Source of the DNA: Mobula hypostoma
Taxonomy: Eukaryota
Direction: 5' to 3'
Length of the DNA stretch: 64,000 nt
NCBI RefSeq assembly: GCF_963921235.1
Contig: NC_086097.1
Coordinates: forward strand, 31,932,001-31,996,000
Shown here: positions 1,876-30,896 of the stretch, piece after piece
Numbering within the stretch: the stretch's first letter is position 1
How the letters are laid out: each line of letters starts with the position of its first letter
Notes under the pieces: model-generated
Told to the model about the DNA's origin: nothing
The model's database searches: none
Seen by the model: only the letters and a program-made list of their open reading frames with translations
Position numbers and translations under genes: made by a program

Positions 1876-2150
1876 TGGCATCATAGCATTGTGGTTAACG
1901 TAATGTTTTACAGGGCCAGCAATTGGAAATTCAGGGTTCAATTCCTGCTCCAGTCTATAAGGATTTGTACATTCTCCCCAGGCCCACTTAGGTCTCCTCC
2001 GTGTGCTCCAGTTTCCACCCACATTCCAGAGATGTAAGGGTTAGAGTTAGTGAGTGTGAGCATGAAATGTGTCCTCAGCATATCCTCGGACTGTGCTGAT
2101 CACCGATGTAAACGATGCATTTCACTATGACAAATGAATCTAATCTTTCA
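1876..2150 (+). mobile_element. tRNA-derived SINE (V-SINE-like)
   Basis: A/B-box-like head (TAGCATTGTGG...GGTTCAATTCC), core GTGCTCCAGTTTCCACCCACATTCC, tail GATGCATTTCACT...GACAAAT; homologous to copies at ~7550, ~13310(-) and 14248. Confidence 0.7.
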
Positions 2151-3628: not shown

Positions 3629-3719
3629 TCTCTTAAATATTGAAATCAAAATCACACCCACCACTTGGACTGGCAGCTCATTCCACACTCTCACCACTCT
3701 CCGAGTGAAGAAGTTTTCC

Positions 3720-3950
3720 CTTCCTGAAGTCCACAATCAATTCCTTGGTCTTGCTACCATTGAGTGCAAGGTTGTTGTTTCGGCACCACTCAACCAGCTG
3801 ACCTATCTCACTCCTGTCCGCCTTCTCACCACTCTCTGGAACTCTGTCAGCAATAGTTGTGTCATCGGCAAATTTATAGATGGCGTTTGAGCTGTACCTA
3901 CCACACAGTCGTGGTTGTAGAGAAAGTAGAGCAGTGGGCTATGCATGCAT
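3720..3950 (-). mobile_element. Rex1/Babar-like LINE RT fragment
   Basis: Reverse complement reads ...SSNAIYKFADDTTIA... and ...QLVEWCRNNNLALNGSKTKELIVDFRK. Confidence 0.75.
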
Positions 3951-5509
3951 CCTTAAAGTGCATCAGTTCTCTGGACCTTCTCCAATACCAGCACATCTTA
4001 TCTTAGACAGGGGAGGCCAAAACTGCTCACTGTACTCTGTGTGGTCTGATCAATGCTTTATAAAACCCCAACATTACATCCCTGCTTTTATTTTCTCAAT
4101 ACGAATGCTAATGCTGCGTTTGCCTTCCGATGATAATCTACATTGTTCTGTTGATTTGCAAACATGGCTGTATTTATTGTTGTGTTTATTGTTGCCACGT
4201 ATGCTCTGAGTTTCATGTGAGCAGAGAATTTCATTGCACCCTGGTGTATGTGATCATATACTCAGCTCAATCTCTTTCTAATTCCACACTGATCTACACT
4301 GGCTAAAATGACAGCATAAGGGGAATAAGCTGATTTTGGCCATTCCCACTATAATATTGGAGGTGATAATTTATGCAATAAGTTTTTCTTTAATGGATTC
4401 ACCGGTAGGAAGATGCTTTGTGGTCTTGAAGTGTGCATAGATCGGTATAAACAACGATTCCATAAGGTTTCTGCAACCTCAGGGCACCCTGGTGTCACTG
4501 AAATATTCACTCCCATATAAAATGGTAAATTGGTTTTATTATTGTCACATGTATTGAGATACAGTGAAAACCCAGTCTCGTATTCTGTTCAGACAGACCT
4601 CTCATTACAACAGTGCATTGAGGTAGTACAAAGTAAAGCAATGACAGAATGCAGAATAAAGTGTAACAGTTACAGAGAAAATGCAGTGCAGGCAGGCAAT
4701 AAGGTGCAAGACCATAATGAGTTAGATCGTGAGGTCAGAAGTCCAGCTTATGGTATAAGTGGACCATTCAACAGTCTTATGACAGTGGTATAGGTCTCTT
4801 TAAGCCTGGTGATATGTGTGTTCATGCTTTTGTATCTTCTGCCTGATGGGAGGGGGAAGAAGAGAGAGTGTCTGGGATAGCTTGGGTTTGTGATTATACT
4901 GGCTGCTCCCCCAAGACAACGAGAAGTGTGGAGATGGAGTGGGCTTCTTGTCCGCAGAGGAGTGAGTGGGATAAATATCAGTGTGGATTGTGTAAAGATT
5001 TTCAGTAGTCGATTGCTCGGAAAGGATAGAGGGAGTCTGCTTGTCTCCCGTGGTGTGAGCAGTGCGGTGGGCTGGTGTCTGGGCATTGGACGTTGGATCT
5101 GGAGATGGGAGAATGACTCCCACTACTACGGTTGGGGTAATCAAATCTGGACCCAGCAAAGTGGCAATTCTGAAACTTCTTCCTGTTGGTACTTAGACAC
5201 CAAGGAGTCATTCCACCCACTAGGTCTCAACAGATTAAAGATTAGCTTTATTGTCACATGTTCTTTGAAACATAAAAACAGACAGTGAAATATGGCGTTT
5301 ATGTCAACGACTAACAAGGGTTTGCTGGGGGCTGCCCCCAAGTGTCTCCAAGTTTCCGGCATGAACAACTTTCTAACGCTGACCTGTGTGTCTTTGGAAT
5401 GTGGGAGGAAACCCAACTGGTAATCGAGAGAACATAAATATTCTGCATTCTTTTTACTATCTTAGTGTACCCCTTATAATTTTGTATACCTCTATCAAAC
5501 CTCTCTTTA

Positions 5510-6316: not shown

Positions 6317-6433
6317 GACACAACGCCTACATCTGCCCGGCTACCAACCAGTGCACGATAGACAAGAACCGACGGAAAAGCTGCCAGGCCTGCAGACTCC
6401 GCAAGTGTTATGAAGTCGGGATGATGAAATCAG
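6317..6433 (+). CDS. ESR2: Estrogen receptor beta-like, exon for DBD zinc finger 2
   Basis: ttccag|GA...TCAG|gtgagt; 117 bp; encodes (G)[38 protein letters not shown] with the ER D-box PATNQ. Confidence 0.97.
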
Positions 6434-7075: not shown

Positions 7076-7894
7076 GTATGATGGAATGCTGCAGAATGGC
7101 AACTTAGTGGGTATGAGGGGTCGGCCTTGGGTGGAGATGAGGCAAGGATAACCAAATCAAGGTTTATGTAATGCTGCATAGAGCTGGAGACTGGGAGATG
7201 CAGGGTACATCCAGCAGGGGACAGGGGCTTCCAGCCGAGGGCATCACAATCAGTAGTCCATCGTCTTTATCACCACTGTCTGACAGATGCCGTGTGAAAC
7301 GTGTCACGTGACAACAGTGTACAGAGCAAGGCTTAATTGCTGTAGGTTTCAAAAATAATTAATTAATTGGATGCAATAGTGTCTTTTAAGAGTCTCGTAG
7401 ATAGCTACATGGAGCTGAGAAAATTAGAGGGCTCTGCGCTAGGGAAATTCTAGGCAGTTTCTAGAGTAGGTTGCATGGCCTGCAATGTGCTGTAGATTTC
7501 TATGTTCTATGTCGAAAAGGGGAATAAGGAAGTAGTGTTCAGAATTTCAAAGACGCAGGGTTAGGGTGATAAGTTGTGGGTGTGCTATGTCGATGCCGGT
7601 AACTTGTGGCTGCCCCCAGTACTGTGTCAGTCGTTGAGGCAACATGTCATATTTCACCCCATGTTTCAATGTACATGTGACAAATAAAGCAAACTTTTAT
7701 TAAAGATGGGAGCAGGGAGAATGTGGGCCTTCCTCCCAAAAGATGTGGTCAAAGGATGATGGCAGAGGTGTTTTCAAAAGGAAATCGGATGAATGGAGGA
7801 GAGAAGAAGTGACAAAAAGATTGGATAAATGATGGACGTGGGTCTGCGGAGTGTTGGGAGATCCCATGAAGGGTGTAGCTACATTGATCATTGT

Positions 7895-8885
7895 GTATTT
7901 GTACAGAGTCACTGTTTAATCAGGACGAGAGTCACTGTGTAACTGTGCAGAGCCACTGTGTGATTGTACAGAGTCGCTCTTTATTTAGGCAAGAGTTGCT
8001 ATGTGACTGTACAGAGTTGCTGTTTATTTCAGGTGAGGGTCACTGATTATGCAACTGCATAGGGTGAAACTCCCACTGCAGGAGATACCCCAGCTTTAGC
8101 AGGAGTTTTTGCGAGTCTGGGGATTAGTCACATCCAGACAGAGTGCTCCTGTGCCAGTGGGGAGTGGTGCTGTGCAGGTGAAGCAGACTGGTCCCCATCT
8201 CATCTCAGTGGGTGTCAGGGAGCCTTGGGAGTGTGGAGAGACCCAGGCTGTGCTAACGCCCAACTCAGCTCATGGGACCCAAGGCCCGAAAGTTCTCTCG
8301 GGGGAGGGTCCCACATAGCATAGGCCATCTTGTGGAGATGCCCGCCATACTGTTTTGTGACATGCAAGGCAGTTCTTGTACAGGCTACTCTTGAACACCT
8401 TTCGTTTCCTTGCCATAGAGGTCTGTTTTACCATCTGGCAATCAGGGATGTCCCTAGTGGAAGTCTCTCTTTGTAAGGGTCCTTCCCCTATACATTGGGG
8501 ACCTGAGATGGAAGGTGTTGCATAGGGTAGTGCCCTGTCAGGGTGCGGGTCACTGTGTAACTGTAGAGAGTCACTGTGTAACTGCACAGAGTCACTGTTT
8601 GTTCAGGGTGAGGGTCACTGTGTAACTGTACAGAGTCACTGTGTAACTGTACAGAGTCACTGTTTGTTCAGGGTGAGGGTCACTGTGTAACTGTACAGAG
8701 TCACTGTTTGTTCAGGGTGAGGGTCACTGTGTAACTGTACAGAGTCACTGTTTGTTCAGGGTGAGGGTCACTGTGTAACTGTACAGAGTCACTGTGTAAC
8801 TGCACAGAGTCACTGTTTGTTCAGGGCGAGGGTCACTCACTGTGTAACTGTACAGAGTCACAGTTTATTCAGGGTGAGGGTCACT
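7895..8885. repeat. Second, partly degenerate array of the 44-bp family, interrupted by a 453-bp insert
   Basis: GTCACTGTGTAACTGTACAGAGTCACTGTTTGTTCAGGGTGAGG units at ~8540-8885; degenerate copies at ~7895-8060. Confidence 0.9.
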
Positions 8886-10319
8886 CCATATGCACTATAG
8901 AGGGTCATTCTGTACTTAGGTTAAGGATCACACACCTGGGGTTCAGCATTTACCAGAGTGGATGAGATGACTGTGTGATTATCCCCCCTCCTCCCTCGCT
9001 CCCTCTCCCCTTGATTGTGCCTCTCTCTATCTCTCCAACTCTATATCACACTTTTGCTGCCCAACTGTCCGATTGCCTGTCTGTCCATTCCTCCCCAGAA
9101 CCATTCCACTTTATGCAACCCTCTCCGTTCGTCCCTCATGAAGACTGTGACTTCCCTCCAGGCCAGCTGCACATTCCCTGGAGCCGCTCCCGCAGGCTGG
9201 CTTACCGAGTCAGCAGTGGTACTGTAATATAGGATATTGTTGTTGTCGTCGTCCATTAACTCCCTCCCCGCACCTTGCGGGCTGTGCCCAAACTCCCCTC
9301 TCCCCCCATAGCTCGGCTGACTCCAAGAGACCCTTCTCCTGCAGTCAGAGCTCTCTGTGTCTGCGCCGGGGTGAGTTGCTTTAACAGATGTTTCACTCCA
9401 TTTGCAAACATCTGGTGGGCCGCTCGAGGCAGGCGGAGAGGAGAAGATGGATTGTGTCTCAGTTGGTGGCCAGAGACAGTCAGACAAGAACAGAGCCTCT
9501 GCTTGCAGTCTGAGATGCATGTTAACTGGCCTTTTCCAAGAAGACAGTAATCCTTCACATTGACAGTACTGTCTCACCCAGTCAGTTCCAAGCTAATGTT
9601 TCCTCTGGCTGGCAAGGCTGGAACACTGGGTCTCCGTCTCTGAGTAACCGATGGAGACAGGAAGAAATATCTTCTCCTGCATGGTGTGTGAATCTTTGGA
9701 TCTTTTCCCCAGGAATGATGCAACAGGATGGACCAAATTCTGTCTCTGGGAATGATATGGGGGAGGATAATACAGTGCTGGAGTCTCACAGCACAGGAAG
9801 AGGCTTTTCAGCCCAATGTGCCCATCTGGGCTAGTACCATTTACTACAGAGAACAGTACAGCACAAGAACAGATCCTGTGGCCCACAATGTTGTGCCTAC
9901 CTCATTACAACGTTTACTAGTTCCGATTAAACTCTCTCCATATCCCTCTACTTTCTGCACATCTTTGTGCCCAAGAACTATTTAAATCCCTCCGTCGTCT
10001 CTGCCTCCACACCACCACTGGAGGCATATTCCAGGCATCCACCAATCTCTGTGTGAAAACACCTAGAACAATGCAGGCCCTTTGGCCTACGACCTTTTAA
10101 CCTGCTCCAAGATCAAATCTAACCTTTCCACATGGGCCTCCATTTTCTGTCATCCATGTGCGTATCTAATTTTCTTAAACGTGTTTGTCAGTCTTTGTGT
10201 GTAGATTTTCATTGATTCTATTGCTTTTCTTAGTTTCCTGTAAATATCTGTAAGATGAATCTCAAAGTAATATATGCTGATTATATACGTACTTTGATAA
10301 TAAATTTTACTTTGACTTA

Positions 10320-10720: not shown

Positions 10721-11269
10721 TCTCCCTTGAACTTAACCCCCTCATTTTAAGTGCATTTTCCCCGGTTTGACTCACTATTTCTATATGTGTACCTATCAAA
10801 ATTTTTCTTAATGGTCTTGATGTGAAAATTTAGCCACAGTTTCACCAAATGCTGGAACAGGGTCTTCAGGCCTTTCTTCTGTTTGTTCACAGATCAGTCC
10901 ACCACAGCCCCAGATTTGCTCAGTAGCTTGGTGGGGATATCTAAATGTTCCACCCTCTCTGCCCCAGAGGTCTGACCTCTGAGCCGAGTCTCTGCCCTGA
11001 GTCTCTGCCCTCCACCACCCAGGTTCCAGCATCTCCTAACTGAGCAAGCATCTCTGCTTCTCATCCTTCTCTCTCTCCTGCTGGTCCTCCAGTCTCTCAA
11101 CACCCCCTTCTCCTCCCACCCCATCACCCACACACTTCTTCTGCTGGCTCCCTTCCCTTCCCCTCACCACTGTTCCTATCTGCCCTCCCACCTTCCCGAT
11201 GTGGCTTCATCCTCCACCTTCCTGTCCTATCAGGTACCACCATCAGTAGCCCTCTGTCACCTCCACCTC

Positions 11270-13225
11270 TCACCTCCCAGCCTCGATCACTACCCCCTCA
11301 CCTCCCAGCCTCAATCACTACCCCCTCACCTCCCAGCCTCTATCACTACCCCCTCACCTCCTCCATCTGCCTATCACCTCCCTCACCTGGATCCACCCAT
11401 CACCTCCCTCACCTGGATCCACCCATCACCTCCCAGCCTCTATCACTACCACACCACCTCCTTCATCTGCCAGCATCTCCCTCACCTGGATCCACCCATC
11501 ACCTGCCAGCCTCGATCACTACCACCCCACCTCCCCGCCTCTATCACTACTCCCTCACCTCTTCCATCTGCCAGCATCTCCCTCACCTGGATCCACCCAT
11601 CACCTGCCAGCCTCGATCACTACCACCCCACCTCCCCGCCTCTATCACTACTCCCTCACCTCTTCCATCTGCCAGCATCTCCCTCACCTGGATCCACCCA
11701 TCACCTGCCAGCCTCGATCACTACCACCCCACCTCCCCGCCTCTATCACTACTCCCTCACCTCTTCCATCTGCCAGCATCTCCCTCACCTGGATCCACCC
11801 ATCACCTGCCAGCCTCGATCACTACCACCCCACCTCCCCGCCTCTATCACTACTCCCTCACCTCCTCCATCTGCCAGCATCTCCCTCACCTGGATCCACC
11901 CATCACCTGCCAGCCTCGATCACTACCACCCCACCTCCCCGCCTCTATCACTACCCCCTCACCTCCTCCATCTGCCAGCATCTCCCTCACCTGGATCCAC
12001 CCATCACCTGCCAGCCTCGATCACTACCACCCCACCTCCCCGCCTCTATCACTACCCCCTCACCTCCTCCATCTGCCAGCATCTCCCTCACCTGGATCCA
12101 CCCATCACCTGCCAGCCTCGATCACTACCACCCCACCTCCCCGCCTCTATCACTACCCCCTCACCTCCTCCATCTGCCAGCATCTCCCTCACCTGGATCC
12201 ACCCATCACCTGCCAGCCTCGATCACTACCACCCCACCTCCCCGCCTCTATCACTACCCCCTCACCTCCTCCATCTGCCAGCATCTCCCCTCACCTGGAT
12301 CCACCCATCACCTGCCAGCCTCGATCACTACCACCCCACCTCCCCGCCTCTATCACTACTCCCTCACCTCTTCCATCTGCCAGCATCTCCCTCACCTGGA
12401 TCCACCCATCACCTGCCAGCCTCGATCACTACCACCCCACCTCCCCGCCTCTATCACTACCCCCTCACCTCCTCCATCTGCCAGCATCTCCCTCACCTGG
12501 ATCCACCCATCACCTGCCAGCCTCGATCACTACCACCCCACCTCCCCGCCTCTATCACTACTCCCTCACCTCCTCCATCTGCCAGCATCTCCCTCACCTG
12601 GATCCACCCATCACCTGCCAGCCTCGATCACTACCACCCCACCTCCCCGCCTCTATCACTACCCCCTCACCTCCTCCATCTGCCAGCATCTCCCTCACCT
12701 GGATCCACCCATCACCTGCCAGCCTCGATCACTACCACCCCACCTCCCCGCCTCTATCACTACCCCCTCACCTCCTCCATCTGCCAGCATCTCCCTCACC
12801 TGGATCCACCCATCACCTGCCAGCCTCGATCACTACCACCCCACCTCCCCGCCTCTATCACTACCCCCTCACCTCCTCCATCTGCCAGCATCTCCCTCAC
12901 CTGGATCCACCCATCACCTGCCAGCCTCGATCACTACCACCCCACCTCCCTGCCTCTATCACTACCCCCTCACCTCCTCCATCTGCCAGCATCTCCCTCA
13001 CCTGGATCCACCCATCACCTGCCAGCCTCGATCACTACCACCCCACCTCCCCGCCTCTATCACTACCCCCTCACCTCCTCCATCTGCCAGCATCTCCCTC
13101 ACCTGGATCCACCCATCACCTGCCAGCCTCGATCACTACCACCCCACCTCCCCGCCTCTATCACTACCCCCTCACCTCCTCCATCTGCCAGCATCTCCCT
13201 CACCTGGATCCACCCATCACCTCCC
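11270..13225. repeat. 101-bp tandem satellite (one BamHI site per unit), about 17 near-identical units
   Basis: GGATCC at 11488, 11589, 11690 ... 13206 (17 x 101 + 1). Confidence 0.97.
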
Positions 13226-13309
13226 AGCTCTTGCTCCACCCCTTTCCCTCGCCTCTTTAAATTTACCATCTCTCCCTGTTTCTTTCCCCTTCCCCACCCA
13301 CTCTATCTT

Positions 13310-13625
13310 AAAGATTAAAGAGAAAAAGGTTATCATTATTTGCCACATGTACATCAAAACATCGGAACGTACGTGAAATGTTGCATTTGAGTCAACAACC
13401 AACACAGCCGGAGGAGGTGCCGGGGGCAGCCGGCGAGTATGGCCATGTTTCAGGCACCAACGTAGCGTGCCCACATCTCTCTAACCTGAATCTGCACGGA
13501 GCATGGGAGGAAACCAGAGCACCCGGAGAAAACCTACACCGTTACGGTGAGAGTGTAACAGCAGTGGGAATTGAGTCCTTATCACTGGCACTGTAAAGCA
13601 TTACGCTAGCCATTATGCTAACGTG
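13310..13625 (-). mobile_element. tRNA-derived SINE (V-SINE-like)
   Basis: GGGAGGAAACCAGAGCACCCGGAGAAAACC core on + strand (reverse complement of the SINE core); GGGAATTGAGTCC B-box-like sequence. Confidence 0.7.
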
Positions 13626-13639
13626 CTGCCTAAAGCTGG

Positions 13640-13980
13640 GTCCTCTCTCCATCTGCTCTCCCTATCTCTCTCCCTTGGTTCCTTTCCTATCTGGTCCCAC
13701 CATCTGCAGCCCCCTGTCACCTCCACCCATCATGTCCAGGACTCCACCACTATTACCCCCCCCCTTCCTTTCCTCCTCTCTCTGCCTATCACCGCTCCGC
13801 ACTTGGATCCTCCTCCCTATCACTGCCAGCTCTCGCCACACTTCTTCTACCCATGTCTTGATACTGGCTATCATCCCCCTGACTTGCAGTCCAGGTGAAG
13901 GGTTTCGATCTGAAACGTTGACTGTCCACAGAGGTCGCCTGACCTGCTGAGCCACCCCAACAGTTTGTTAGTTGCTCAAG
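13640..13980 (+). mobile_element. Penelope-like element 3' tail / pseudo-LTR fragment with a degenerate hammerhead motif
   Basis: Pyrimidine-rich tail similar to 61110-61428, followed by CAGTC CAGGTGA AGGGTTTCGATCT GAAAC GTT GACTG and CCTGACCTGCTGAG. Confidence 0.6.
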
Positions 13981-14247
13981 GAAGCAACTGCCCTGTCAGT
14001 CTCATGTGAGGCTGAGGGGTGACCTCATAAAAATGGATGGAATTATGAGAGGCATAGATCGAGTAGAGAGTTCTTTACCCAGAGTAGAAATGTCAAACGC
14101 CGCAGGGCATGGCTTTAGGGTGAGAGCGAAAAAGTGAATACCTGTAGGCTTCTCCACCTCAGGTTGGGTAAGACTAGAACTAGAGGTCATTGGCTTAGGG
14201 TGAAAGGTGAAATAGTCAATGGGAACTTGAGGGGGACCTTATTCACA

Positions 14248-17200
14248 GGCTGCATGGTAATGTAGTGGTTAGCATAACATTTTATAGTGCTGGCTGTAAA
14301 ACTGGGATTGAATTTCGGCTGCTGTTTGTCAGGAGTTTGTACAGTCTGCCTTTCGCTGTGTAGGTTTCCTCCAAATGCTCTGGTTTCCTCCCACATTGCA
14401 AAGATGTGAAGGTTAGGGTTGGTGAGGGTTAGGGTTGTGAAGGTTAGGGATGTGAGGGTTAGGGTTGGTGAGGGTTAGGGATGTGAAGGTTAGGTTTGGT
14501 GAGCGTTAGGGATGTGAAGGTTAGGGTTGGTGAGGGTTAGGGGTATGAAGGTTAGGGTTGGTGAAGGTTGGGGTTGGTGAAGGTTGGGGTTGGTGAGGGT
14601 TAGGGTTGTGAAGGTTAGGGTTGGTGAAGGTTAGGGTTGGGAAGGTTAGGGTTCGTGAGGGTTAGGGTTGATGAGGGTTAGGGATGTGAGGGTTAAGGAT
14701 TGTGAGGGTTAGGGTTGGTGAGGGTTAGGAATGTGAGGGTTAAGGATTGTGAGGGTTAGGGTTGGTGAGGGTTAGGCATGTGAAAGTTAGGGTTGGTGAG
14801 GGTTAGGGATGTGAAGGTTAGGGTTGGTGAGGGTTAGGGATGTGAAGGTTAGGGTTGGTGAGGGTTAGGGATGTGAGGGTTAAGGATTGTGAGGGTTAGG
14901 GTTGGTGAGGGTTAGGGTTGGTGAGGGTTAGGGTTGGTGAGGGTTAAGGATGGTGAGGGTTAGGGTTGGTGAGGGTTTAGGATTGTGAGTGTTAGGGTTG
15001 GTTAGGGTTAGGGATGTGAGGGTTAGTGATGGTGAGGGTTAGGGTTGGTGAGGGTTAAGGATTGTGAGTGTTAGGGTTGGTGAAGGTTAGGGTTGGTGAG
15101 GGTTAGGGTTGGTGAGGGTTAAGGAGTGTGAGGGTTAGGATTGGTGAGGGTTAAGGATTGTGAGGGTTAGGGTTGGTGAGGGTTAGGGATGTGAGGGTTA
15201 GGGTTGGTGAGGGTTAGGGATGTGAGGGTTAAGGATTGTGAGGGTTAGGGTTGGTGAGGGTTAAGGATTGTGAGGGTTAGGGTTGGTGAGGGTTAAGGAT
15301 TGTGAGGGTTAGGATTGGTGAGGGTTAGGGTTGGTGAGGGTTAAGGATTGTGAAGGTTAGGGTTGGTGAGAGTTAGTGATGTGAATGTTAAGGTTGGTGA
15401 GGGTCACGGATGGTGAGGGTTATGGATGTGAGGATTAGGGATGTGAGGGTTAATGATTGTGAGGGTTAGGGTTGGTGAGGGTTAGGGTTAGGGTTGGTGA
15501 GGGTTAAGGATTGTGAGGGTTAGGGTTGGTGAGGGTTAGGGTTGGTGAGGGTTAAGGATTGTGAGGGTTAGGGTTGGTGAGGGTTAGGGTTAGGGTTGGT
15601 GAGGGTTAAGGATTGTGAGGGTTAGGGTTGGTGAGGGTTAAGGATTGTGAGGGTTAGGGTTGGTGAGGGTTAGGGTTAGGGTTGGTGAGGGTTAAGGATT
15701 GTGAGGGTCAGGGTTGGTTCGGGTTAGGGTTGGTGATGGTTAAGGATTGTGAGGGTTAGGGTTGGTGAGGGTTAGGGTTAGGGTTGGTGAGGGTTAAGGA
15801 TTGTGAGGGTTAGGGTTGGTGAGGGTTAGGGTTAGGGTTGGTGAGGGTTAAGGATTGTGAGGGTTAGGGTTGGTGAGGGTTAGGGTTAGGGTTGGTGAGG
15901 GTTAAGGATTGTGAGGGTCAGGGTTGGTTCGGGTTAGGGTTGGTGAGGGTTAAGGATTGTGAGGGTTAGGGTTGGTGAGGGTTAGGGTTAGGGTTGGTGA
16001 GGGTTAAGGATTGTGAGGGTTAGGGTTGGTGAGGGTTACGGATGTGAGGGTTAAGGATTGTGAGGGTTAGGGTTAGGGTTGGTGAGGGTTAAGGATTGTG
16101 AGGGTTAGGGTTGGTGAGGGTTAAGGATTGTGAGGGTTAGGGTTGGTGAGGGTTAAGGATTGTGAGGGTTAGGGTTGGTGAGGGTTAGGGTTGGTGAGGG
16201 TTAAGGATTGTGAGGGTTAGGGTTGGTGAGGGTTAGGAATGTGAGGGTTAAGGATTGTGAGGGTTAGGGTTGGTGAGGGTTAGGCATGTGAAAGTTAGGG
16301 TTGGTGAGGTTTAGGGATGTGAAGGTTAGGGTTGGTGAGGGTTAAGGATTGTGAGGGTTAAGGATTGTGAGGGTTAGGGTTGGTGAGGGTTAGGGTTGGT
16401 GAGGGTTAAGGATGGTGAGGGTTAGGGTTGGTGAGGGTTTAGGATTGTGAGTGTTAGGGTTGGTTAGGGTTAGGGATGTGAGGGTTAGTGATGGTGAGTG
16501 TTAGGGTTGGTGAGGGTTAAGGATTGTGAGTGTTAGGGTTGGTGAAGGTTAGGGTTGGTGAGGGTTAGGGTTGGTGAGGGTTAAGGAGTGTGAGGGTTAG
16601 GATTGGTGAGGGTTAAGGATTGTGAGGGTTAGGGTTGGTGAGGGTTAGGGATGTGAGGGTTAGGGTTGGTGAGGGTTAGGGATGTGAGGGTTAAGGATTG
16701 TGAGGGTTAGGGTTGGTGAGGGTTAAGGATTGTGAGGGTTAGGGTTGGTGAGGGTTAGGGTTGGTGAGGGTTAGGGTTGGTGAGGGTTAAGGATTGTGAG
16801 GGTTAGGGTTGGTGAGGGTTAGGATTGTGAGGGTTAGGGTTGGTGAGGGTTAGGCATGTGAAAGTTAGGGTTGGTGAGGGTTAGGGATGTGAAGGTTAGG
16901 GTTGGTGAGGGTTAAGGATTGTGAGGGTTAAGGATTGTGAGGGTTAGGGTTGGTGAAGGTTAGGGTTGGTGAGGGTTAAGGATTGTGAGGGTTAAGGATT
17001 GTGAGGGTTAGGGTTGGTGAGGGTTAGGGTTGGTGAGGGTTAAGGATGGTGAGGGTTAGGGTTGGTGAGGGTTTAGGATTGTGAGTGTTAGGGTTGGTTA
17101 GGGTTAGGGATGTGAGGGTTAGTGATGGTGAGTGTTAGGGTTGGTGAGGGTTAAGGATTGTGAGTGTTAGGGTTGGTGAAGGTTAGGGTTGGTGAGGGTT

Positions 17201-18636
17201 AGGGTTGGTGAGGGTTAAGGAGTGTGAGGGTTAGGATTGGTGAGGGTTAAGGATTGTGAGGGTTAGGGTTGGTGAGGGTTAGGGATGTGAGGGTTAGGGT
17301 TGGTGAGGGTTAGGGATGTGAGGGTTAAGGATTGTGAGGGTTAGGGTTGGTGAGGGTTAAGGATTGTGAGGGTTAGGGTTGGTGAGGGTTAGGGTTGGTG
17401 AGGGTTAGGGTTGGTGAGGGTTAAGGATTGTGAGGGTTAGGGTTGGTGAGGGTTAGGATTGTGAGGGTTAGGGTTGGTGAGGGTTAGGCATGTGAAAGTT
17501 AGGGTTGGTGAGGGTTAGGGATGTGAAGGTTAGGGTTGGTGAGGGTTAAGGATTGTGAGGGTTAAGGATTGTGAGGGTTAGGGTTGGTGAGGGTTAGGGT
17601 TGGTGAGGGTTAAGGATGGTGAGGGTTAGGGTTGGTGAGGGTTAGGGATGTGAGGGTTAAGGATTGTGAGGGTTAGGGTTGGTGAGGGTTAAGGATTGTG
17701 AGGGTTAGGGTTGGTGAGGGTTAGGGTTGGTGAGGGTTAAGGATTGTGAAGGTTAGGGTTGGTGAGAGTTAGTGATGTGAATGTTAAGGTTGGTGAGGGT
17801 CACAGATGGTGAGGGTTATGGATGTGAGGATTAGGGATGTGAGGGTTAATGATTGTGAGGGTTAGGGTTAGGGTTAGGGTTGGTGAGGGTTAAGGATTGT
17901 GAGGGTTAGGGTTGGTGAGGGTTAGGGTTAGGGTTGGTGAGGGTTAAGGATTGTGAGGGTCAGGGTTGGTTCGGGTTAGGGTTGGTGATGGTTAAGGATT
18001 GTGAGGGTTAGGGTTGGTGAGGGTTAGGGTTAGGGTTGGTGAGGGTTAAGGATTGTGAGGGTTAGGGTTGGTGAGGGTTAAGGATTGTGAGGGTTAGGGT
18101 TGGTGAGGGTTAGGGTTGGTGAGGGTTAGGGTTGGTGAGGGTTAAGGATTGTGAGGGTTAGGGTTGGTGAGGGTTAAGGATTGTGAGGGTTAGGGTTGGT
18201 GAGGGTTAGGGTTAGGGTTAGGGTTGGTGAGGGTTAAGGATTGTGAGGGTTAGGGTTGGTGAGGGTTAAGGATTGTGAGGGTTAGGGTTGGTGAGGGTTA
18301 GGGATGTGAGGGTTAAGGATTGTGAAGGTTAGGGTTGGTGAGGGTTAAGGTTGGTGAGGGTTAGGGTTGGTGAGGGTTAGGGTTAGGGTTAGGGTTAGGG
18401 ATGTGAGGGTTAGGGTTGGTGAGGGTTAGGGATGTGAGGGTTAAGGATTGTGAGGGTTAGGGTTGGTGAGGGTTAGGGATGTGAGGGTTAGGGTTAGGGT
18501 TAGGGTTAGGGTTGGTGAGGGTTAGGGATTGTGAGGGTTAGGGTTGGTGAGGGTTAGGGATGGTTGGTGAGTTGTAGGCATGCTGTTTTGGTGCTGGAAC
18601 TGCGTGGAAGCTCGCAGGCTGCCCCAGCACATCCTC
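14248..18636 (+). mobile_element. SINE split by an internal telomere-like array
   Basis: Head and core at 14248-14402 (GGTTTCCTCC...GGTTTCCTCCCACAT); body resumes at 18571 (GTTGTAGGCATGCT...GGCTGCCCCAGCACATCCTC); tail reappears at ~19356-19415 after another insert. Confidence 0.8.
14403..18571 (+). repeat. Interstitial telomere-like satellite, mostly 16-bp units GAGGGTTAGGGTTGGT / GAGGGTTAAGGATTGT, with short pure (TTAGGG)n runs
   Basis: Direct reading; (TTAGGG)4 runs at ~18377 and ~18488. Confidence 0.97.
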
Positions 18637-20289
18637 AAAGATTCAAAGTAAACTTATTTTCAAAGTTTGTCTGCAGTATACAACCCTGAGATTCGTCTTC
18701 CCACAGACAGCCACGAAATAAGAAAACCGTGGAACCCGATCCAGGGAGAACATCAAACCCGCAACGCGCAAAGAACAAATCGCGCAAACGGCACAAAAAA
18801 GCGAGCAGTAAACAAGGAATATAAAACACCAGACCTCAAGTCATCAAAACAGTGCAGGAATATTCAGTTCAGTTCTATCCAGAGCCGCGTCGTTCGTTGA
18901 CTGCAGGCCGCCCCGATTAAAACCACCCAAAATAGCAACAAAAAAGGAGCAACCAGAGCCACATCTCAACGTGAACCCGAGAGTCCAATTCACAAACCAC
19001 ACTGATTAAACCTTAAACCTTGCCCAAGACCCAGGGGTCCGGAATCGTCCTCCAGCACCATCGAGCACAGGCACTTTCCTCCGGCAGCAAAGAGCGAGAG
19101 AGAGAGAGACCGGTTACCCGCAGGCAGACGGCACTGAACACCCGCGCGCCTTCCGCTCTCATCCTCATTTCAGTCTTCCTCACGCTTTAATCGGTGGTGG
19201 GATCAATGAGAAATGGAGTCGCTCATGGGCTCGCGCCCTGTCTCCAGGGTTCTTGGCCTCATGGCCACACACTTCGCTTGAAACCTCACCGAGCTCCCTC
19301 AGAGACAACAAGCACCAGGTTGCTCAGTCGCCCCGAAAACGCGCCGTCAAGAAACGACGCAAATGATGCATTTCACTGTATGTTTCAATGTTCATGTGAT
19401 AAATAAAGATAATCTCTAAATCTCTTGCACTACCCTCTGAATGAGATGAGTGTGGAACAAGCTGCCAGCTCAATTGTAACATTTAAAGTTCAAAGTACAT
19501 TTATTATCAAAATATGTGTAAATTATACAACCTTGTCTCCTTATAGGCAGCTACAAAACAAGAAACCCGAAAGAACCTATTTTTAAAAAAGACCCAATGC
19601 GCAGAGAGAGAAGAACAAAAATCGCGCAAACAGTAAAAGCAAGCAACAGCATTCAGAATGAAAATGTGTCCGTAGACACAAAGCCTGGAGCAGGCCCACA
19701 GCGTCACCCTCGGTCCATTACACAGCAGAGCAAATGGCCACAACGCTCACAGACCCAAAGTCCGCAGCAGCCTCACAGCCTCAGCCACAGTGCCTCGGAG
19801 AGCGGAGGAAACATCGTGGAGCAGCGAGCAGAACCGGTTTGACCCTCGACACCCGCAACTTTTGAAGCTATACAGCCCAGCGTTTAAATCATACAAGCAC
19901 TGGGTCGTGCCTCACACTAGAACCCAGGCCCTGTTGCATCATTTCACTTTGGGCCTGGACCTGCCCCGACCAGCGTGTTCTGGCCCGTACCCGACCTTAC
20001 CAAATCAGCCCAGCACTTAGATCAACCACACTTCACTCTCTGATAGGTGGATTGGCTCCAAAACTCCTTTGCTCCAACTTTTCTCTGCTTCACAGGTTCC
20101 GATGTCATCTTGACCGTCTCTCGACCTCCCTCCGACCACTCCTCCTCGAACATGCCTCGACCTGGCTGTGAATTTGCATCGCACTCGCACGCCTCGACCC
20201 TCGTGTCAGCTTCGATTTCGCTCGGCTCTTCATTGTTTGCAGTGATTGTTTACCACAATTTTCTACAGAAAGAGGCATTTAGACAGATA

Positions 20290-21100
20290 TAGAGCATAGA
20301 ATAGTACTGCTCAGGAACAGGCACTTGGCCCACAATGTTGTGCCAAACCATCAAAAGCACCCAAAAACTAATCCCTATTACCTATAATCGTCCATATCCC
20401 TCCATCTTTCTTACATCCATGTGCCTATCCAAATGTCTATTAAAAGACTCTAATCTATTTGCCTCTACCACCATACCAGGCAGCACATACCAGACATCCA
20501 CGACTCTGAGTGGAAAACCTTAGTTCTCACATATCCATTGAACCTACCTCCTCTCATCTTCACTGCATGCTCTCTGGTATTAGATATTTCAACCCTAGGA
20601 AACAGATACTCTCTGTCCTCTCTATCTATGCCTCTCACAATCTTGTAAACCTCTGTCAAATCTCCCCTCAGCCTCCAGTGCTCTGGAGAAGACAACCCAA
20701 GTTTATCCAGCCCCTGGTGATAGCACATATCCCTCTAAGCCAGGAAGCAACCTTGTAAACCTCTTCTGCACCCTCTCCAAATCCTCAATATCCTTCCTAT
20801 AATGGGGTAACCAGAATGTGGCCTAAATCAAGTTTTATAAAATTGTAACAACACCTCTTGACTTTTGAACTTGCTGCCTTGACCAATAAAAGCAAGCATT
20901 CCATAACCCTTCCGAACCGCCTTATCGACCTGTGTAGCCACTTTCAAGGAGCTGTGAACTTGGATCCCGAGATCTCTCTGCTCAGCAACACTGTTAAGAA
21001 TCTTGCCCTAAACAGTGCACTGTCTCCTTGCACTTGTCCTACTGAGGTGCAAATCCTCACATTTATCTGGGTTAAACTCCATCTGCCCATATCTGCAACT
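20290..21100 (-). mobile_element. CR1 LINE 3' fragment
   Basis: LDKLGLSSPEHWRLRGDLTEVYKIVRGIDR in ORF 20465-20728(-). Confidence 0.8.
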
Positions 21101-23060: not shown

Positions 23061-24516
23061 GGCTGTTTACGGTACTGTTCAAAAATGGAGGACTATGTGG
23101 GAGGGAAGATGGTGTTTGTTTAATATTTCAGCAATATTTGAGGAATATTGGAAATATATTGTGTGCTTATTTACATAAATCATTACGGGTTGTATGTAAA
23201 AGTATGTGAATGATGTACGTCTTTATACCACCATGTCATTTGTGCACACCTCACTAAAGTAAGAAAAAGCATACACTAATTACTCTGGGCTCCCATGTCG
23301 TTTTTTAAATTAATTTATGGAGTTACAAAACGTAAAAGTAATGACGAGTAAGTGTAAAAGCAAACCTGAGATGATTACTTACCAGTGGAAGCTCAGTGAA
23401 ATGATTGAGTTTTTAAAAATCGCAGGAAGTTTTTTTCTTCGGAACAGCAAATATTCTTCGCAAGAGGTGAGAGATGGTCATTTAAAAAAGGCAGAAAATG
23501 GATGAAATTCATGGATTCATAAATAGTGAGTACTGGGTGATTAAAAATAAATAAATAAGCAAAAATGGCTGGTTATATTGGAAAGATGCACTCGATTGCA
23601 CAAAAGATAACTGAAGGATGTTTGCTGTGCAAATAGAGCAGTATTTTAAAGCAAATGAAATAGCCAGTGCAAAGTGAGTGCCAGTTTTGTGGAGTGTAAT
23701 AGGTTGAAAAGCATACAGTTTGCTTAGAGGTTTATCTGTTCCAACCAAACCAGCCAAAATGAGCTTTGCTGATGTCATGAAAGTAATGCGAGAACATTTA
23801 GATTTGAAACTATTGCTGATTGCAGAACGCTATAGGCCTCATAAAAGGAATCAAAAGGAAAGGGAGTTCATTTCAGCGTACGTTGCTGAATTGAAGAGAT
23901 TGTCTGAGCATTGGCAGTTCAGTGGTGAACTTAATGATGCACTGAGAGATTGTTTGGTTTATGGAATATTACAAGGAAGCATTCAAAAATTACTCCCAAC
24001 TGAAGCACACCTCACATTTAAAGGAGCAGTTGAAATAGCTGTATCAAGGGAAACAGCAGACAGAGATGCAATTGAGTTGCAGTCAGGAATTAAAGTGAGT
24101 GTGAACAAAATTGCAGCATTTAAACAGAAACCGGCCTGGCCGAATATATTGTGTTACAGTTATGGAAGGGGTTCACATACACAAGACCAATGTAGGTTTA
24201 AAGGTGAACATTGCAGAAAATGCAGTAAAATAGGATACATACAACAAGAATGTTGTGTGGATAAAAATAAATGGACTTGACAAGGAAGATAGAAAAATCT
24301 GATAATGGTGAGAGTGACACAGGACTGGCTAGCCTTGAGATTTACAATATGAAATCTAACAATAGACAAGCAATATGACTTACACCAGAAGTGAATGACA
24401 AAATAATTAAAATGGAATTAGACACTGGCTCAGCTGATTCAGTTGTCCTTGAAATGAGTTTGAATGACAGTTTGAAGATACTGAGCTGAAGCCTGCAGAT
24501 ATCCAACTAAGAACTT

Positions 24517-25104
24517 GGCGCGGATCGTGTTGCTGTTGCATCAGAGAGGCTTTAGAGGAGTTGATGTGCAAGGGAAGTGTGCAGTCTAACAGTGAGTAAT
24601 CATCTTAGTCACTTTTCTTGTGATCACATGAACCTGTTGGACGTTGTTAATGTGGAATGCTGCAAGTCTGATTCACTGATTTACTGGCAGATGGTAGGAG
24701 CAGACTGCAGGGGAGCAGCATGGCCTCACTTGTAGTGAGGACCAGGTCTCAAGCTGCGATGTCACCTGCTCAAGTGAAAGGCATTGGATTGGTGCACTTC
24801 ACTGTAGGCGGCGTGGCTCAGCATCCAAGCAGGAGTCGGTGCTGCCCCCCTGTGTTTGCTCGGCAGAAGACAAACTGTATTGTAGTTGACTGCAGACTGC
24901 TGCAACGTTCGTAGACTTAGGGTCTTGGGTATATTTTTTGTGTGGCTGTATTTTATTGATATCTTGTAAGTGCCTGCTATCCTGTATGTGCCATATGTGC
25001 CTTGTGCTGTGTGTGATTGTTGGTACTATGTTTTGCGCCTTGGCCCCGGAATAACGCGGTTTCGTTTGGCTGTATTCATGTATAGTTGAATGACAATTAA
25101 ACTT
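24517..25104 (+). mobile_element. Non-coding retroelement-like insert inside the Gypsy protease region
   Basis: Splits QLRT|YTGEKITP; flanked by GAACTT/GAATTT; ends AATTAAACTT. Confidence 0.65.
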
Positions 25105-27127
25105 GAATTTATACTGGAGAAAAGATAACTCCAGTGGGAATGTTATTTGTAACTATGAAACAATTAACAACTCCCGTTGGGCTTGTAGGTTGTAAAAACA
25201 GGAAGACCAGCATTGTGGGGCCATGAGTGGCTGACAAAACTATATCTTGATTGGAGATCCATCCATCATCTATATGCCACCTCCCTTGCAATAGAGTCAA
25301 CTGAAAGCGGATTGAGCAGGGTACTGGGTGATGCCACAGCGGTGTTCAAGAATGGCATTAGAAAACTCAAGCATATCAAGGATAAAATAGTGTTAACTGA
25401 AAATACCACACCCAAGTTTTGCAAAGCCCATCTGGTTCCATATACCATCTGTGATAAAGGAGCCAGTGAGTTAGATCACATGGAGGCTGAAGGAATTCTT
25501 TCCAAGGCTGAATGGAGTCTGTGGGTTACACCTGTGCTCCAGTAGCCAAGAAGAATGGGTCAGTCAGGATCTGTTGTGATTTTGAAGTTACCATCAACCC
25601 AGTATTGTAAGTGGCTCAATACCCTCTGCCCAGGATAGAGGATATCTTTGCAAACCTTCCTGGAGGGAAACACTTCAGCAAAGTGGACAGCTGAGGTCAA
25701 CCTACAGATGGAGATGGAAGAGGAGTCCAAAGTGTTTCTCACTGTTAGCTCTCACAAGGTGCTTTAATTCTGTGAAAGGCTTATTTTTGGAGTGGCATCT
25801 GCACCTGCACTCTGTCGAAAAGCTATAGGCTGGCGCTACAAGGCTGCCCAGGCACTCAGTGTAACCTGGATGACTTCATTGTAACTGCATGACAAGGAAC
25901 ATCTCCAAAATCTCAAAACAGTGTTAAAAAGTTGAGAAGGTTATGGGCTCAGAGCACAACGCAACAAGTATGAATTCTTTAAGCCAAGCATCACTTACTG
26001 TGGTCACACTATTGATGCACAAGGATTACACGAGTGTGCTGAGGAAATTCAAGCAGTGATGCCAAAGGACATGTCACAGTTGCCATCCTTTTTTAGGATT
26101 TATCACTTGCTCCTGCCAAACCTGGCTACTGTATACTGCACCTCTTGAACTGATTACTACAGATTGGGAAGAAATGGCAATGGACAAAGCAGTATGAGGT
26201 GGCCTTCCAAAAGGCAAAGGAAATGGTGATGTCAGAGGTTGTACTCACACATTATGATCCACATCATCCAGTGAGCCTTATGGTCTGGGTGTAGTCATGT
26301 CACATATTATGAGTGATGGAAGTGAATGTCCCATAGTCTTTGCATCTTGTTCCTTTACCGCTGCAGAGAAAAATTACTTACAGATCAACAGACAGGCCTT
26401 GAGTCCTATTTGAAGTGTAGAACATTTCAATCAATACTTGTATGGGGGAAGAGTTTACCCTCATTACTGATCATCCACATTTTAAATCCACAGATGGGTG
26501 TCCATTTTCAATCCTCAGATGGGTGTTCCGCTAACTGCAGGAATGCAGAGATGGGCTCTGTTTCTTGGAGGGCACAATTACAAGATTGAATTCAAGAGGA
26601 TGACTAATCATGGAATATCCCATTTACCCTTGGAAAAGGAAATACCTGAAAATTTATATAAGAGGACACGCCTCTTGACATATTCTTCAGAACACAAATC
26701 AAAAGACTCCCTATTATAACAGGGATTTTCCAAAGGGAAACCAGAAAAGACCCCACACAGCCTGGGGTCTACATGGCCATCCAAAATGACTGAAATGGGC
26801 AGCAGAAACTCCCATCCCTCATTTTTACAGCACCGGGATGAACTTGCCCCTGACAGAGGTTGCCTTATGTGGGGTTTGAGAGTTGTTCTACCGTGCAAAC
26901 TGAGAGCTGAAGTGTTGGGGGAGCTACGTGCCGGTCATCTAGGTGTGGTCGAGATGAAAGTGTTGGCTCGAAGCTTTGTCTGGTGGCCTGGAGTAGATCA
27001 GATCGAACAGCTTGCCATGCACTATTTGGGGTGTCAACACATCCAGAAGAAAGCTGTCAGAACCACTTACTGTAGACCCAGAATCAACTCCTACACCACC
27101 ACAGAGGAGGCCCCTGAACCTGAGATT

Positions 27128-27475
27128 ATGAGAGGCATAGATAGGGTGGATAGCCAGTACCTGTTTCCCAGGGCACGAATAGCAAAGACCGGAGGGCATA
27201 TGTACAAAGTTAATGGAGGGAAGTTTAGGGGAGACATCAGGGGTAAGTTTTTTACACAGAGGGTTGTGGGTGCCTGGAATGACTTGCCAGGGATGGAGGT
27301 GGAGGCTAAAACATTAGGGGTATTTAAGAGCCTCTCGGACAGGCACATGGATGAAAGAAAAATAGAGGATTACAGGGTAGTGTAGGTTTAGTACTTTTTT
27401 TTAAAAGGAATATATGGGTCGGCACAACATTGAGGGCGGAAGGGCCTGTACTGTGCTGTAGTATTCTAGTGTCTA
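27128..27475 (+). mobile_element. CR1 3' fragment inserted in the Gypsy element
   Basis: MRGIDRVDSQYLFP...FFTQRVVGAWNDLP followed by a CR1 tail; Gypsy sequence resumes at TTTCACAGCCACAGG. Confidence 0.85.
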
Positions 27476-28349
27476 GTATTTCACAGCCACAGGTCTTACC
27501 TACAAAGCAGAGTGATCTGCTCTCCCACAAGAGTAAGAAACCTTCAGCAGTGATTAAATCTTTAGGTCTGAATGGGACAATTAAAAATTTATTCTGCTGT
27601 GGGTGTCTATATACCAGTTGTATTAAACAGTATACTGTATAAAATATATGTATATAAACTGCGATGCATTCTATATTGAGTTGGAGTTTATAGCCAGGCA
27701 GAGAGGAGAGTTGTGTTTTTAATATTTGAGTAATATTGTAAATGTATTGTTTGATTTAAGCATTCTTTGTTTAATTAATTTCAGGTTATGTTTAAGAATA
27801 CGTCAATATGCCACCACATCATAAGTGCCTCATTAAAGTAAAAATAAAGCATACACGAGTTATCTCTGAGCTCTCGTGTCTTTCTTTCGACTAGTTTATG
27901 GAGTTACGAAACATAACAGAAGGGTTGGATTGATCTTAGAGTAGGTTAGAGGGTCGGCACAACTCAGTGGGCTGAAGGGCCTGCTCTGTGCTCTACTGTA
28001 CTATATTCTATGTTTAGTTACTGAGTTCTTGTGCACTGTCACAATGAAAGATTCAGGATATTCCAACCTAGAGGCCCCAAGTACCAGTGAACATTATGTT
28101 ATGTAAGTACATCCATGTACAACATTGTGGGCCGAAGGGCCTGTACTATGCTGTACTCTTCGATGTTCTAGGCAGGATGTATACGAGCTCCTTAGTATGT
28201 ATGGGTGGACATAACCTGGAGAGGGGGTCTGTTTTTAAAAAGCGACACCACCCAGCATGTCAGTCTTTATCCAGAATCCCTGAGAGTTTTGTCCACAACT
28301 TCTCCTGTGGAGACCCACACTCTTACGGAGGATGTGAAGGTCCCTGAAA

Positions 28350-28897: not shown

Positions 28898-29232
28898 TTT
28901 CTCCCCCTCTCCCCTCTCCCCTCTCCCCTCTCCCCTCCCCCTCTCCCCTCCCCCTCTCCCCTCCCCCTCTCCCCTCCCCCTCTCCCCTCTCCTTCTCCCC
29001 CTCTCCCCCTCCCACCTCCCCTCTCATCCTGTCACCCTCTCACTCCATAACCCCACTCCCCCTCTCGCCCCATACGCCCACTCCCCACTCCCCATTCCCC
29101 ACCCCCTCTCCCCCTCCCCTCTCCGCTCTCCCTTCTCCCCGTCCCCTCTCCCCCTCACCCCTCACCCGCTCCCCCCTCACCCCCTCACCCTCACCCCCTC
29201 CCCCCTCTCTCCTCCTCCCCCCATCCCCTCCC
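28898..29232. repeat. Low-complexity C/T tract ((CCCCTCT)n-like) directly upstream of the exon acceptor
   Basis: Direct reading. Confidence 0.9.
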
Positions 29233-29242
29233 ACACTGACAG

Positions 29243-29542
29243 ACACACGGAGAGACCGCTGCAATTACCGGCTGACGCGACAGCCTCGATTGGACAGCGG
29301 GCAGCAGGACGGGGGCAGCAAAACACACAAGGCGGTGGAGGGGGTGCAGGTCAGCGAGATCTGCCTAGGACAGCTGGCCCCCGAGAAGCTGCTGAACTCC
29401 CTCCTGGAGGCTGAGCCCCCCAATATCTACTCACTAAATCGCCCCAACAAGCCCTTTACCGAGGCCTCGATGATGATGTCACTGACAAACCTGGCTGACC
29501 GCGAACTTGTGCACATGATCGCCTGGGCCAAGAAAGTCCCAG
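29243..29542 (+). CDS. ESR2: Estrogen receptor beta-like, exon for hinge and start of LBD
   Basis: ctgacag|AC...CCAG|gtaac; 300 bp; (D)[10 protein letters not shown]...[47 protein letters not shown]; phase matches both neighbouring exons. Confidence 0.95.
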
Positions 29543-30562: not shown

Positions 30563-30757
30563 ACTGTGTGACGGGGTGAGTTATCTCCAACATTTCCTGT
30601 ATTGTTGCTGCCCAACCTGCTGAATCCTGCCAGCCTTCTGCCTGATTCCTGAGCAGTTCCTGCATGGGGTGAGTTGCTGGCGATGTGTTTCTGGGTGTTG
30701 CAGGCAGATGTGGACCCTGCACAGTGCACCCAGTGCATGTTGTGTTTCTCTCGGCAG

Positions 30758-30896
30758 GCTTCGTGGAGCTGGACTTACACGACCAGGTTCAGCTGTTGGA
30801 GAGCTGCTGGTTGGAGATTCTGATGCTGGGGCTTATGTGGCGATCCATCGACTACCCTGGCAAGCTCTTCTTTGCTCCTGATCTCATCCTGGACAG
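30758..30896 (+). CDS. ESR2: Estrogen receptor beta-like, LBD exon
   Basis: tctctcggcag|GC...GACAG|gtgagg; 139 bp; (G)[45 protein letters not shown](R). Confidence 0.97.

Follow-up and report, generated by a model that had tools for sequence, protein, structure and literature searches.

An array of short G-rich repeats lies within a 22.8-kb intron of ESR2 (ER-beta), in the 64,000-base stretch of DNA that was analysed as a whole (the window). ESR2 exons are read on the plus strand on either side (Table 1), which makes the G-rich strand the sense strand, as an earlier sequence-only reading had proposed. The same reading's 'TERRA-like' pre-mRNA is overstated. TERRA is a chromosome-end transcript with long UUAGGG tracts; the label was rejected for this array on the grounds of its intronic position in ESR2 and a TTAGGG content of only about a quarter (25.5% of array bases). 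No open reading frame of 100 amino acids overlaps the array, and coding potential was rejected. Tandem arrays of all kinds, this one included, occupy 29,264 of the 64,000 bases (46%), and nearly all of them are unrelated to it.

Table 1. Features of the array, its host element and the surrounding gene (positions in the window)
Feature	Position	Strand	Basis or remark
Comparison site: seed of a paralogous SINE copy without expansion	2031..2054	+	21/24 to the unit footprint
ESR2 exon for the second zinc finger, 5' of the array intron	6317..6433	+	Pfam zf-C4, E 6.9e-13; splice sites read
Older host repeat fragment, 5' part, cut by the SINE insertion	14140..14247	+	
V-SINE 5' part: head, V domain (14332-14408), seed (14403-14426)	14248..14426	+	aligns with window paralogs
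15/16-bp G-rich minisatellite	14406..18571	+	243 units, 147 YTAGGGTTR half-sites
Exact tandem block duplication inside the array	16319..17590	+	complete identity over 638 bases (638/638), offset 634
Pure telomeric runs of 28 and 30 bp, the longest in the array; nested +6 expansions	18373..18513	+	
V-SINE body, continuing after the array	18572..18636	+	colinear with paralogs 1870+, 5228-, 7540+, 13400-
Second, unrelated retroposon-like insertion in the V-SINE copy	~18637..19344	- (inferred from tail)	SINE alignment breaks
V-SINE 3' tail	~19345..19420	+	matches tails at 5228-5291, 7651-7689
Host repeat fragment, second part, after the SINE	19427..19476	+	short inverted target-site piece precedes
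ESR2 exon, hinge and start of ligand-binding domain, downstream	29243..29542	+	best PDB hits oestrogen receptor beta, E 2.2e-21

The array is a 15/16-bp minisatellite, not a TTAGGG tract. The TRF tandem-repeat call places it at 14406-18564, with a 16-bp period, 259 copies and 80% matches. Cut at its GTGAR anchor it yields units of 15 or 16 bp, the commonest being GTGAGGGTTAGGGTTG (76 of 243) and the second-commonest GTGAGGGTTAAGGATT (56 of 243); 36 distinct unit types are arranged in ordered blocks. Autocorrelation peaks at lag 16 (0.75); lag 6 reaches 0.61, but lags 12, 18 and 24 only 0.33, 0.27 and 0.27. Single hexamers make up 137 of the 154 TTAGGG runs, and at most 5 hexamers stand in phase. 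Perfect telomeric stretches longer than 12 bp number 17; those of at least 18 bp amount to 6.9% of the array, the maximum length of a pure run being 30 bp. Strand asymmetry is pronounced (17 C in 4159 array bases) and the orientation is single throughout. The 4.2-kb G-rich array of the sequence-only reading is thus present, with its junction letters and both quoted seeds (2031-2055 and 7552). The name 'telomere-like' sits loosely on it, in view of the TTAGGG share, the 16-base period and the short pure runs, and the claim of expansion from a TTAGGG seed does not hold: the unit that expanded is a 16-mer.

Unit order within the array is far from random: the longest string of units that recurs has 39 members, whereas 100 shufflings of the unit order never gave more than 7. 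The blocks share 92-100% identity, which argues against an old and decayed array. Units bearing the flank's GTGAAG letter are concentrated at the 5' side (10 of the first 30, 0-3 per 30 later). The +6 unit form is absent from the first 30 units and appears earliest at 14985; the two (TTAGGG)4 runs lie near the 3' end (18377-18400 and 18488-18511), where they had been reported.

By its V domain and its interspersed copies the host element qualifies, on sequence, as a V-SINE. The V domain at 14332-14408 is identical, without gaps, to that of MER6 at 59 of 77 positions (PMC6887750 supplement; hand count), and V-SINE-related pieces occur at 8 places in the window. Stretches resembling the A and B boxes of a tRNA-derived head are visible by eye at 14250-14320; Rfam gives no match there, nor any at E up to 1 across 13200-20500. 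Summed contig depth is about 2e5 on the V core versus about 7 on unique flank contigs (run X2), a quantity that is not copy number. The older repeat into which the SINE inserted is presumably a CR1-type LINE 3' piece. Its upstream part matches a copy at 31092-31171 (minus strand) at 78% over 81 bases, and its last 27 bases match a paralog at 3640-3760 (minus strand) right up to the SINE start; alignment of the downstream part with the same paralog is modest (local scores 39 forward, 19 inverted). The SINE copy itself extends past 18636, interrupted by the second element and resuming with its tail from about 19345. One end of this intervening insertion matches 19485-19569 and 2970-3000. The tail gives an nhmmer E value of 8.9e-22 with a profile that itself included that tail.

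SINE halves, tail and outer host repeat all stand in order on the same strand, and this colinearity supports the view that both array flanks come from one SINE copy and not from different copies. It also bears on whether the array is a degenerate telomere or fusion relic, or came from a subtelomeric satellite by homology-based copying into the SINE. The very heavy load of tandem repeats does suggest a chromosome-end-like region (in the red stingray, tandem repeats increase toward chromosome ends; bioRxiv 10.1101/2025.06.08.657570), and TGAGGG hexamers are frequent (205). Nevertheless, there is no head-to-head inversion, gene, host repeat and SINE are colinear across the array, 6-bp phase is gone by lag 12, and the blocks are too alike to be old and decayed; such an origin is very hard to credit. 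The colinearity already largely refutes it, and the fusion relic was rejected, the array being in single orientation with no head-to-head arrangement.

Deleting 14427-18571, the 4145 bases in excess of an empty SINE, restores a colinear element: the empty-site model shows no net gap relative to copy 5228- and one base relative to 1870+. Paralogs are 68-69% identical to the array-bearing copy and 1190- is 52% identical (values obtained with an empty-site model 8 bases longer than the final one), so that reconstruction of the ancestral seed relies on a small number of old copies. The two seeds quoted in the sequence-only reading are the best of the set; copies 5228-, 13400- and 1190- are more degenerate or lack a seed. 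The 24-base footprint of the unit has only one match in the window outside the array, at 2031-2054 (21 of 24), with a chance expectation of 0 in 100 shuffles. Since this sole match lies in a paralogous SINE, at the position homologous to the array site, the unit is taken to derive from the SINE, and the proposal that the SINE supplied it stands: the whole unit is already there in an unexpanded copy. The founder (14406-14421) is flanked by GTGA(A)G, a short direct repeat with copies at 14406 and 14422 (spacing 16 bases); the repeat could also reflect later conversion of the flank, after the array had formed. The comparison supports an origin for which neither fusion nor telomerase would be needed.

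The alternative that invokes telomerase directly is that the enzyme repaired a break in the SINE seed by adding a few TTAGGG repeats, making a class A short interstitial telomeric sequence (ITS) that was later amplified together with SINE bases as a 16-mer. Class A short ITS within SINEs or LINEs are a described category (PMC9693754), the array does have the same interspersed repeat on both flanks, and the uniform G-strand and the 17 longer perfect stretches would suit telomerase. Against this, no added telomeric bases are required when the whole unit exists in an unexpanded paralog, the +6 form is missing from the first 30 units, and the longest pure runs lie at the 3' end within 16-mer context. 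Instead of the 6-bp period and up to about 20 TTAGGG of short ITS, the array has 4.1 kb, a period of 16 and pure runs of no more than 30 bp. Telomerase insertion is accordingly rated improbable.

The array is very probably a SINE-derived minisatellite that grew by slippage and block duplication. A V-SINE of a subfamily with a V domain ending in a degenerate GGTTAG-GGTTAG pair inserted into the older repeat in the ESR2 intron, and the first duplication may have come about by slippage or unequal exchange between the GTGA(A)G repeats at 14406 and 14422. Point variants would then have spread through unequal exchange of 100-640-base blocks, a mechanism suggested by the visible block structure. With two AGGGTT hexamers in the main unit, additional +6 slips could have generated short pure telomeric runs without telomerase, although telomerase, or copying from a real telomere, is a conceivable source of these +6 runs. 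The array is probably intronic DNA of neutral effect and polymorphic length, in a region where minisatellites tend to grow.

An assembly artefact, whether through mis-joining to telomeric reads or through inflation of the array, has little to recommend it. The exact 638-base tandem copy might have been introduced by the assembler, and no contig among those listed bridges the SINE-array junction (contigs cannot span the array). On the other side, the order of the nested host repeat, the SINE halves and the ESR2 exons is preserved to the left and right of the array, the 36 unit types form ordered blocks, and unique left-flank contigs match with 0-1 differences (runs X1 and X2). A mis-join is unlikely; a length error of about 0.6 kb is possible.

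The sequence-only reading had also made the SINE family a genome-wide source of such arrays. That the subfamily acts in this way repeatedly, with many copies carrying a perfect TTAGGG seed and many expanded, is unlikely. A recognisable GGTTAG-type seed is kept in 4 of the 5 other window copies that span the site, a single, unplaced contig among the matches listed in run X7 (a related organism) has a tandem joint reading as the second-commonest unit, and multi-locus families are known for mouse B1 and squamate SINEs. However, none of these five copies is expanded, none has a YTAGGGTTR half-site and only one has an intact TTAGGG; among the public contigs listed, the commonest continuation after the V core is one GGGTTAG followed by TAGGTTAATTGG, without TTAGGG. 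No interstitial telomeric sites were detected by FISH in either the three carpet sharks or the one freshwater stingray examined; these are other species, and 4-kb degenerate arrays may escape the method. Genome-wide recurrence would be compatible with a SINE-derived minisatellite, and would only widen that explanation.

Scans for the SINE-copy pattern gave no locus in metagenome contigs, none in viral contigs and one (L045) in genome contigs, with no match to the SINE profile; a gapped pattern gave 44 loci, none matching the profile. Summed depth goes from about 2e5 at 14398 to 203 (X2), 26 (X7), 9 (X14) and 5 (X1) at 14436. A single array would be compatible with this drop, yet contigs resembling human sequence had been filtered out, and the dip is not used as evidence and constitutes no finding. 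No RNA run is listed as containing the sequence; coverage of the intronic flank in run X1, only tentatively taken for RNA, carries no weight as to transcription. In a literature search with most subscription journals outside its scope, no publication was found that prints the V-SINE subfamily sequence or that treats the mouse B1-derived family under its short name; telomere-like minisatellites brought up algal telomere papers only.

TRF1/TRF2 targets are defined by at least two YTAGGGTTR half-sites at any spacing (as cited in PMC3241663), a rule derived from human TRF1 and applied here as a sequence rule only. The array supplies such half-sites 147 times, against a single one elsewhere in the window, counting both strands, so that some TRF1/TRF2 binding is plausible. 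Its mean G4Hunter score of 1.19, against 1.5 for pure telomere, indicates moderate G-quadruplex potential. The shelterin and G-quadruplex sites of the sequence-only reading accordingly hold for the array itself, at the level of sequence; their genome-wide spread is unsupported.

What is offered is a readable case in which telomere-like interstitial DNA would have arisen by slippage in a transposon, not by fusion or telomerase; reviews list a slippage origin as a hypothesis (PMC9693754). It is also a caution that TTAGGG-rich hits in such assemblies need not be fusion scars or chromosome ends, and a natural test of TRF protein binding to spaced half-sites. As things stand, the array is one minisatellite among several in a repeat-laden gene. 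It is unlikely that the active consensus of this V-SINE subfamily has a perfect GGTTAG dimer, placing a half-site in each young copy and giving rise independently to many kilobase-sized shelterin-binding arrays with telomerase-free pure runs. Were that so, a retroposon would keep supplying the lineage with interstitial telomeric sites independently of telomerase, one of which might affect ER-beta transcription or splicing.

Minisatellite birth inside a SINE is a known route; the many telomere-protein binding motifs are the twist here. The mouse B1-derived (GGCAGA)n VNTR family (Bois et al. 1998) and human Alu-derived minisatellites (Jurka and Gentles 2006), each as cited in PMC6947457, are ascribed there to short flanking repeats followed by slippage or unequal exchange. 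The ESR2 array resembles them in its unit (an internal SINE segment with SINE halves as flanks), in the short direct repeats around the unit and in G-rich strand asymmetry. They differ in being multi-locus families, a single locus being shown here, and the present host is a V-SINE whose unit has two AGGGTT hexamers, so that TRF-type sites occur in the array along with nested runs of pure TTAGGG. The squamate satellites sSat1-3 (PMC10702118) are likewise tandem arrays grown from part of a SINE, reaching hundreds of units, sometimes keeping both SINE ends and tending to subtelomeric regions; their units are of about 70-290 nt, as against the telomere-like 15-16 nt of the ESR2 array.

Class A short ITS (Azzalin et al. 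2001, summarised in PMC9693754) have up to about 20 tandem TTAGGG, and the same source cites 'birth of a microsatellite by slippage' as an alternative ITS origin (Mondello et al. 2000). Telomere-like DNA between the halves of one interspersed repeat is common to these and the ESR2 array; length, period and the count of hexamers in phase set the latter apart. The V-SINE superfamily carries a V domain as in MER6 and Ac1 (PMC6887750 supplement). The V domain printed there ends in GTTAGGTTAA, which makes a proto-seed an old feature of the V domain; the host subfamily departs from those elements in its 3' body and in the greater length of its GGTTAG-type pair.

The array, a G-rich minisatellite of 15/16-bp units within one V-SINE copy, is present at 14406-18571 (period 16, 259 copies by TRF repeat detection), as the sequence-only reading had observed. 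Splitting at the GTGAR anchor yields 243 units, the commonest being GTGAGGGTTAGGGTTG (76/243) and GTGAGGGTTAAGGATT (56/243). TTAGGG hexamers contribute 25.5% of array bases, and 137 of the 154 TTAGGG runs are single hexamers. Perfect telomeric stretches, counted in any phase, cover 31% of the array at lengths of at least 12 bp and 6.9% at lengths of at least 18 bp (longest, 30 bp). Self-identity is 0.75 at lag 16, 0.61 at lag 6, 0.33 at lag 12, and 0.27 at lags 18 and 24. On the basis of hexamer share, stretch lengths and lag identities, the array is a 16-bp minisatellite with embedded telomeric hexamers rather than a telomeric tract. The earlier label, telomere-like, is loose; both (TTAGGG)4 runs do lie near the 3' end, as had been claimed.

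When the window was searched with a 24-base footprint spanning both founder unit types (up to 3 mismatches), 109 of the 110 matches fell within the array and the sole other, at 2031-2054, was the homologous site of an unexpanded SINE paralog; 100 shuffles gave none. An empty-site model (14427-18571 removed) shows no net gap relative to the minus-strand copy at 5228 and a single base relative to the plus-strand copy at 1870. The proposal that the SINE supplied the repeat unit is upheld by that paralog match and by the colinearity of the empty-site model. GTGA(A)G occurs at 14406 and 14422, on either side of the founder 16-mer, and the Haber and Louis model, as outlined in PMC6947457, has minisatellites starting from short flanking repeats. 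In 5 aligned paralogs this pair is missing or imperfect, which may be why growth occurred in the host copy alone. (Alternatively, the pair may have been written by conversion after the array had grown.) Local derivation of the array unit from the SINE is well supported and highly probable.

The V domain of the host copy, at 14332-14408, is identical at 59/77 ungapped positions (counted by hand) to the MER6 V domain printed in the PMC6887750 supplement. The printed domain ends in GTTAGGTTAA, which would make the proto-seed an old part of the V domain; amniotes are described as lacking V-SINEs (PMC6887750). This absence, together with the repeat families present, makes a ray or shark the probable source of the sequence. 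A first stretch of host repeat is followed by the 5' part of the SINE, the array, the body of the SINE, the second insertion and the SINE tail, after which the host repeat resumes; this nested order argues for a single SINE copy as the source of both array flanks. The outer host repeat aligns on both sides with one paralog (modest scores, 20 and 39). The host SINE copy has been hit twice, by array growth and by a retroposon-like insertion; the latter is related to another at 19485-20270, with a similar tail. Beside the SINE tail, a short inverted copy of host target sequence (19427-19445, low score) suggests a small inversion upon SINE insertion.

Features of the host SINE copy and the receptor gene (window coordinates)
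Feature	Position	Strand
Second insertion, in host SINE copy	about 18637-19344	
SINE tail	19345-19420	
Oestrogen receptor exon	about 6317-6433	+
Oestrogen receptor exon	about 29243-29542	+
Oestrogen receptor exon	about 30758-30896	+
Oestrogen receptor exon	about 57583-57716	+

The longest repeated run in the unit string is 39 units, whereas none of 100 shuffles exceeded 7. A 638-base block is duplicated in tandem without a mismatch, and two further block pairs are identical at 385/391 and 157/171 positions. Units with the flank letter GTGAAG number 10 among the first 30, then 0-3 per 30; none of the first 30 is longer by one hexamer, the earliest such unit being at 14985. These distributions fit a scheme in which slippage and unequal exchange would have built the array and pure TTAGGG runs would have arisen late, inside it, possibly with the aid of telomerase.

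The suggestion that the SINE family generates such arrays genome-wide is at present unsupported. Among the 5 other SINE copies in the window that span the seed site, none is expanded there and none has a YTAGGGTTR site (the TRF1 half-site motif); 1/5 has an intact TTAGGG and 4/5 a degenerate GGTTAG-type seed. Public contigs of four sequencing runs were aligned to 13240-14470 at 80% likeness. Among the matches listed, the V core continues as CATACGGGTTAGTAGGTTAATTGG in 195 contigs of run X2 (agreement 0.52) and as TAGGTTAATTGG in 15 contigs of run X1, with one GGGTTAG and no TTAGGG, although the host copy's subfamily may differ; none of the matches listed for the four runs bridges the SINE-array junction. 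Orthologous left-flank pieces are found in organisms B and C. In favour of the wider reading, one contig of B (run X7) has a tandem joint reading as the second-commonest array unit, weakly suggesting that the array itself or a sister array predates the split from that relative. Interstitial telomeric sites are reported to be absent by FISH from a freshwater stingray (PMC9858463) and from three carpet sharks (PMC7648076).

A TRF1 dimer requires a pair of YTAGGGTTR motifs, whatever the distance between them (PMC3241663, citing Bianchi 1999); 147 such motifs lie in the array and 1 elsewhere in the window. Interstitial TRF binding favours genic regions, conservation and length also mattering (PMC6410037). 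Motif number, the two-motif rule and genic preference make TRF binding to the array plausible; the shelterin claim is at present unsupported. The G4 potential that had been proposed does exist (mean G4Hunter score 1.19 versus 1.5 for pure telomere; 1.2 reached in half of the 25-base windows), but is not special to the array, since three other repeat blocks in the window equal or surpass it in absolute score, on the opposite strand. The window's strongest score belongs to the template strand of a 330-base C-rich low-complexity tract (28900-29242) directly upstream of the hinge exon acceptor. The G-rich strand is indeed the sense strand of the receptor gene, all four exons being co-oriented with it, and any UUAGGG-rich RNA from the array would be intronic pre-mRNA. 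ER-beta is the best PDB match for two of the four exons (two searched).

The array fills about 18% of its 22.8-kb ESR2 intron, and 11 tandem blocks including it occupy 29264 of the 64000 window bases. About 1.2 kb upstream lies a C-rich 101-bp minisatellite (11269-13228; 17.8 copies, 98% matches), and the same intron holds a decayed element (23100-27900, labelled by eye as LTR-retrotransposon-like) with pol-like stretches and similar ends near 23120-23330 and 27700-27910. One 21/44-bp unit family recurs at 1-1189, 7892-8050 and 8538-8886, all in ESR2 introns, and is a dispersed minisatellite family. Adjoining minisatellites of 52-bp and 31-bp units (29587-30570) make up most of a short intron between two ligand-binding-domain exons. 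A later intron carries an 18.7-kb C-rich 19/22-bp minisatellite (31591-53435). It is split by a LINE piece (about 50340-52660) whose 593-codon open frame includes a reverse transcriptase domain, and beyond this piece it continues for 775 bases.

Slippage birth is already among the alternative origins listed for interstitial telomeric sequences (ITS; PMC9693754; general background in PMC5499810, PMC5804259 and bioRxiv 10.1101/2025.06.08.657570). The literature covered, largely outside subscription journals and judged from listings and passages, yielded no description of a telomere-like minisatellite born from a V-SINE. The array shares its flank type with class A short ITS but matches them in neither size nor period. 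Its mechanism is like that of mouse B1-derived and human Alu-derived minisatellites (both as cited in PMC6947457), and it resembles the SINE-derived satellites described in squamates (PMC10702118).
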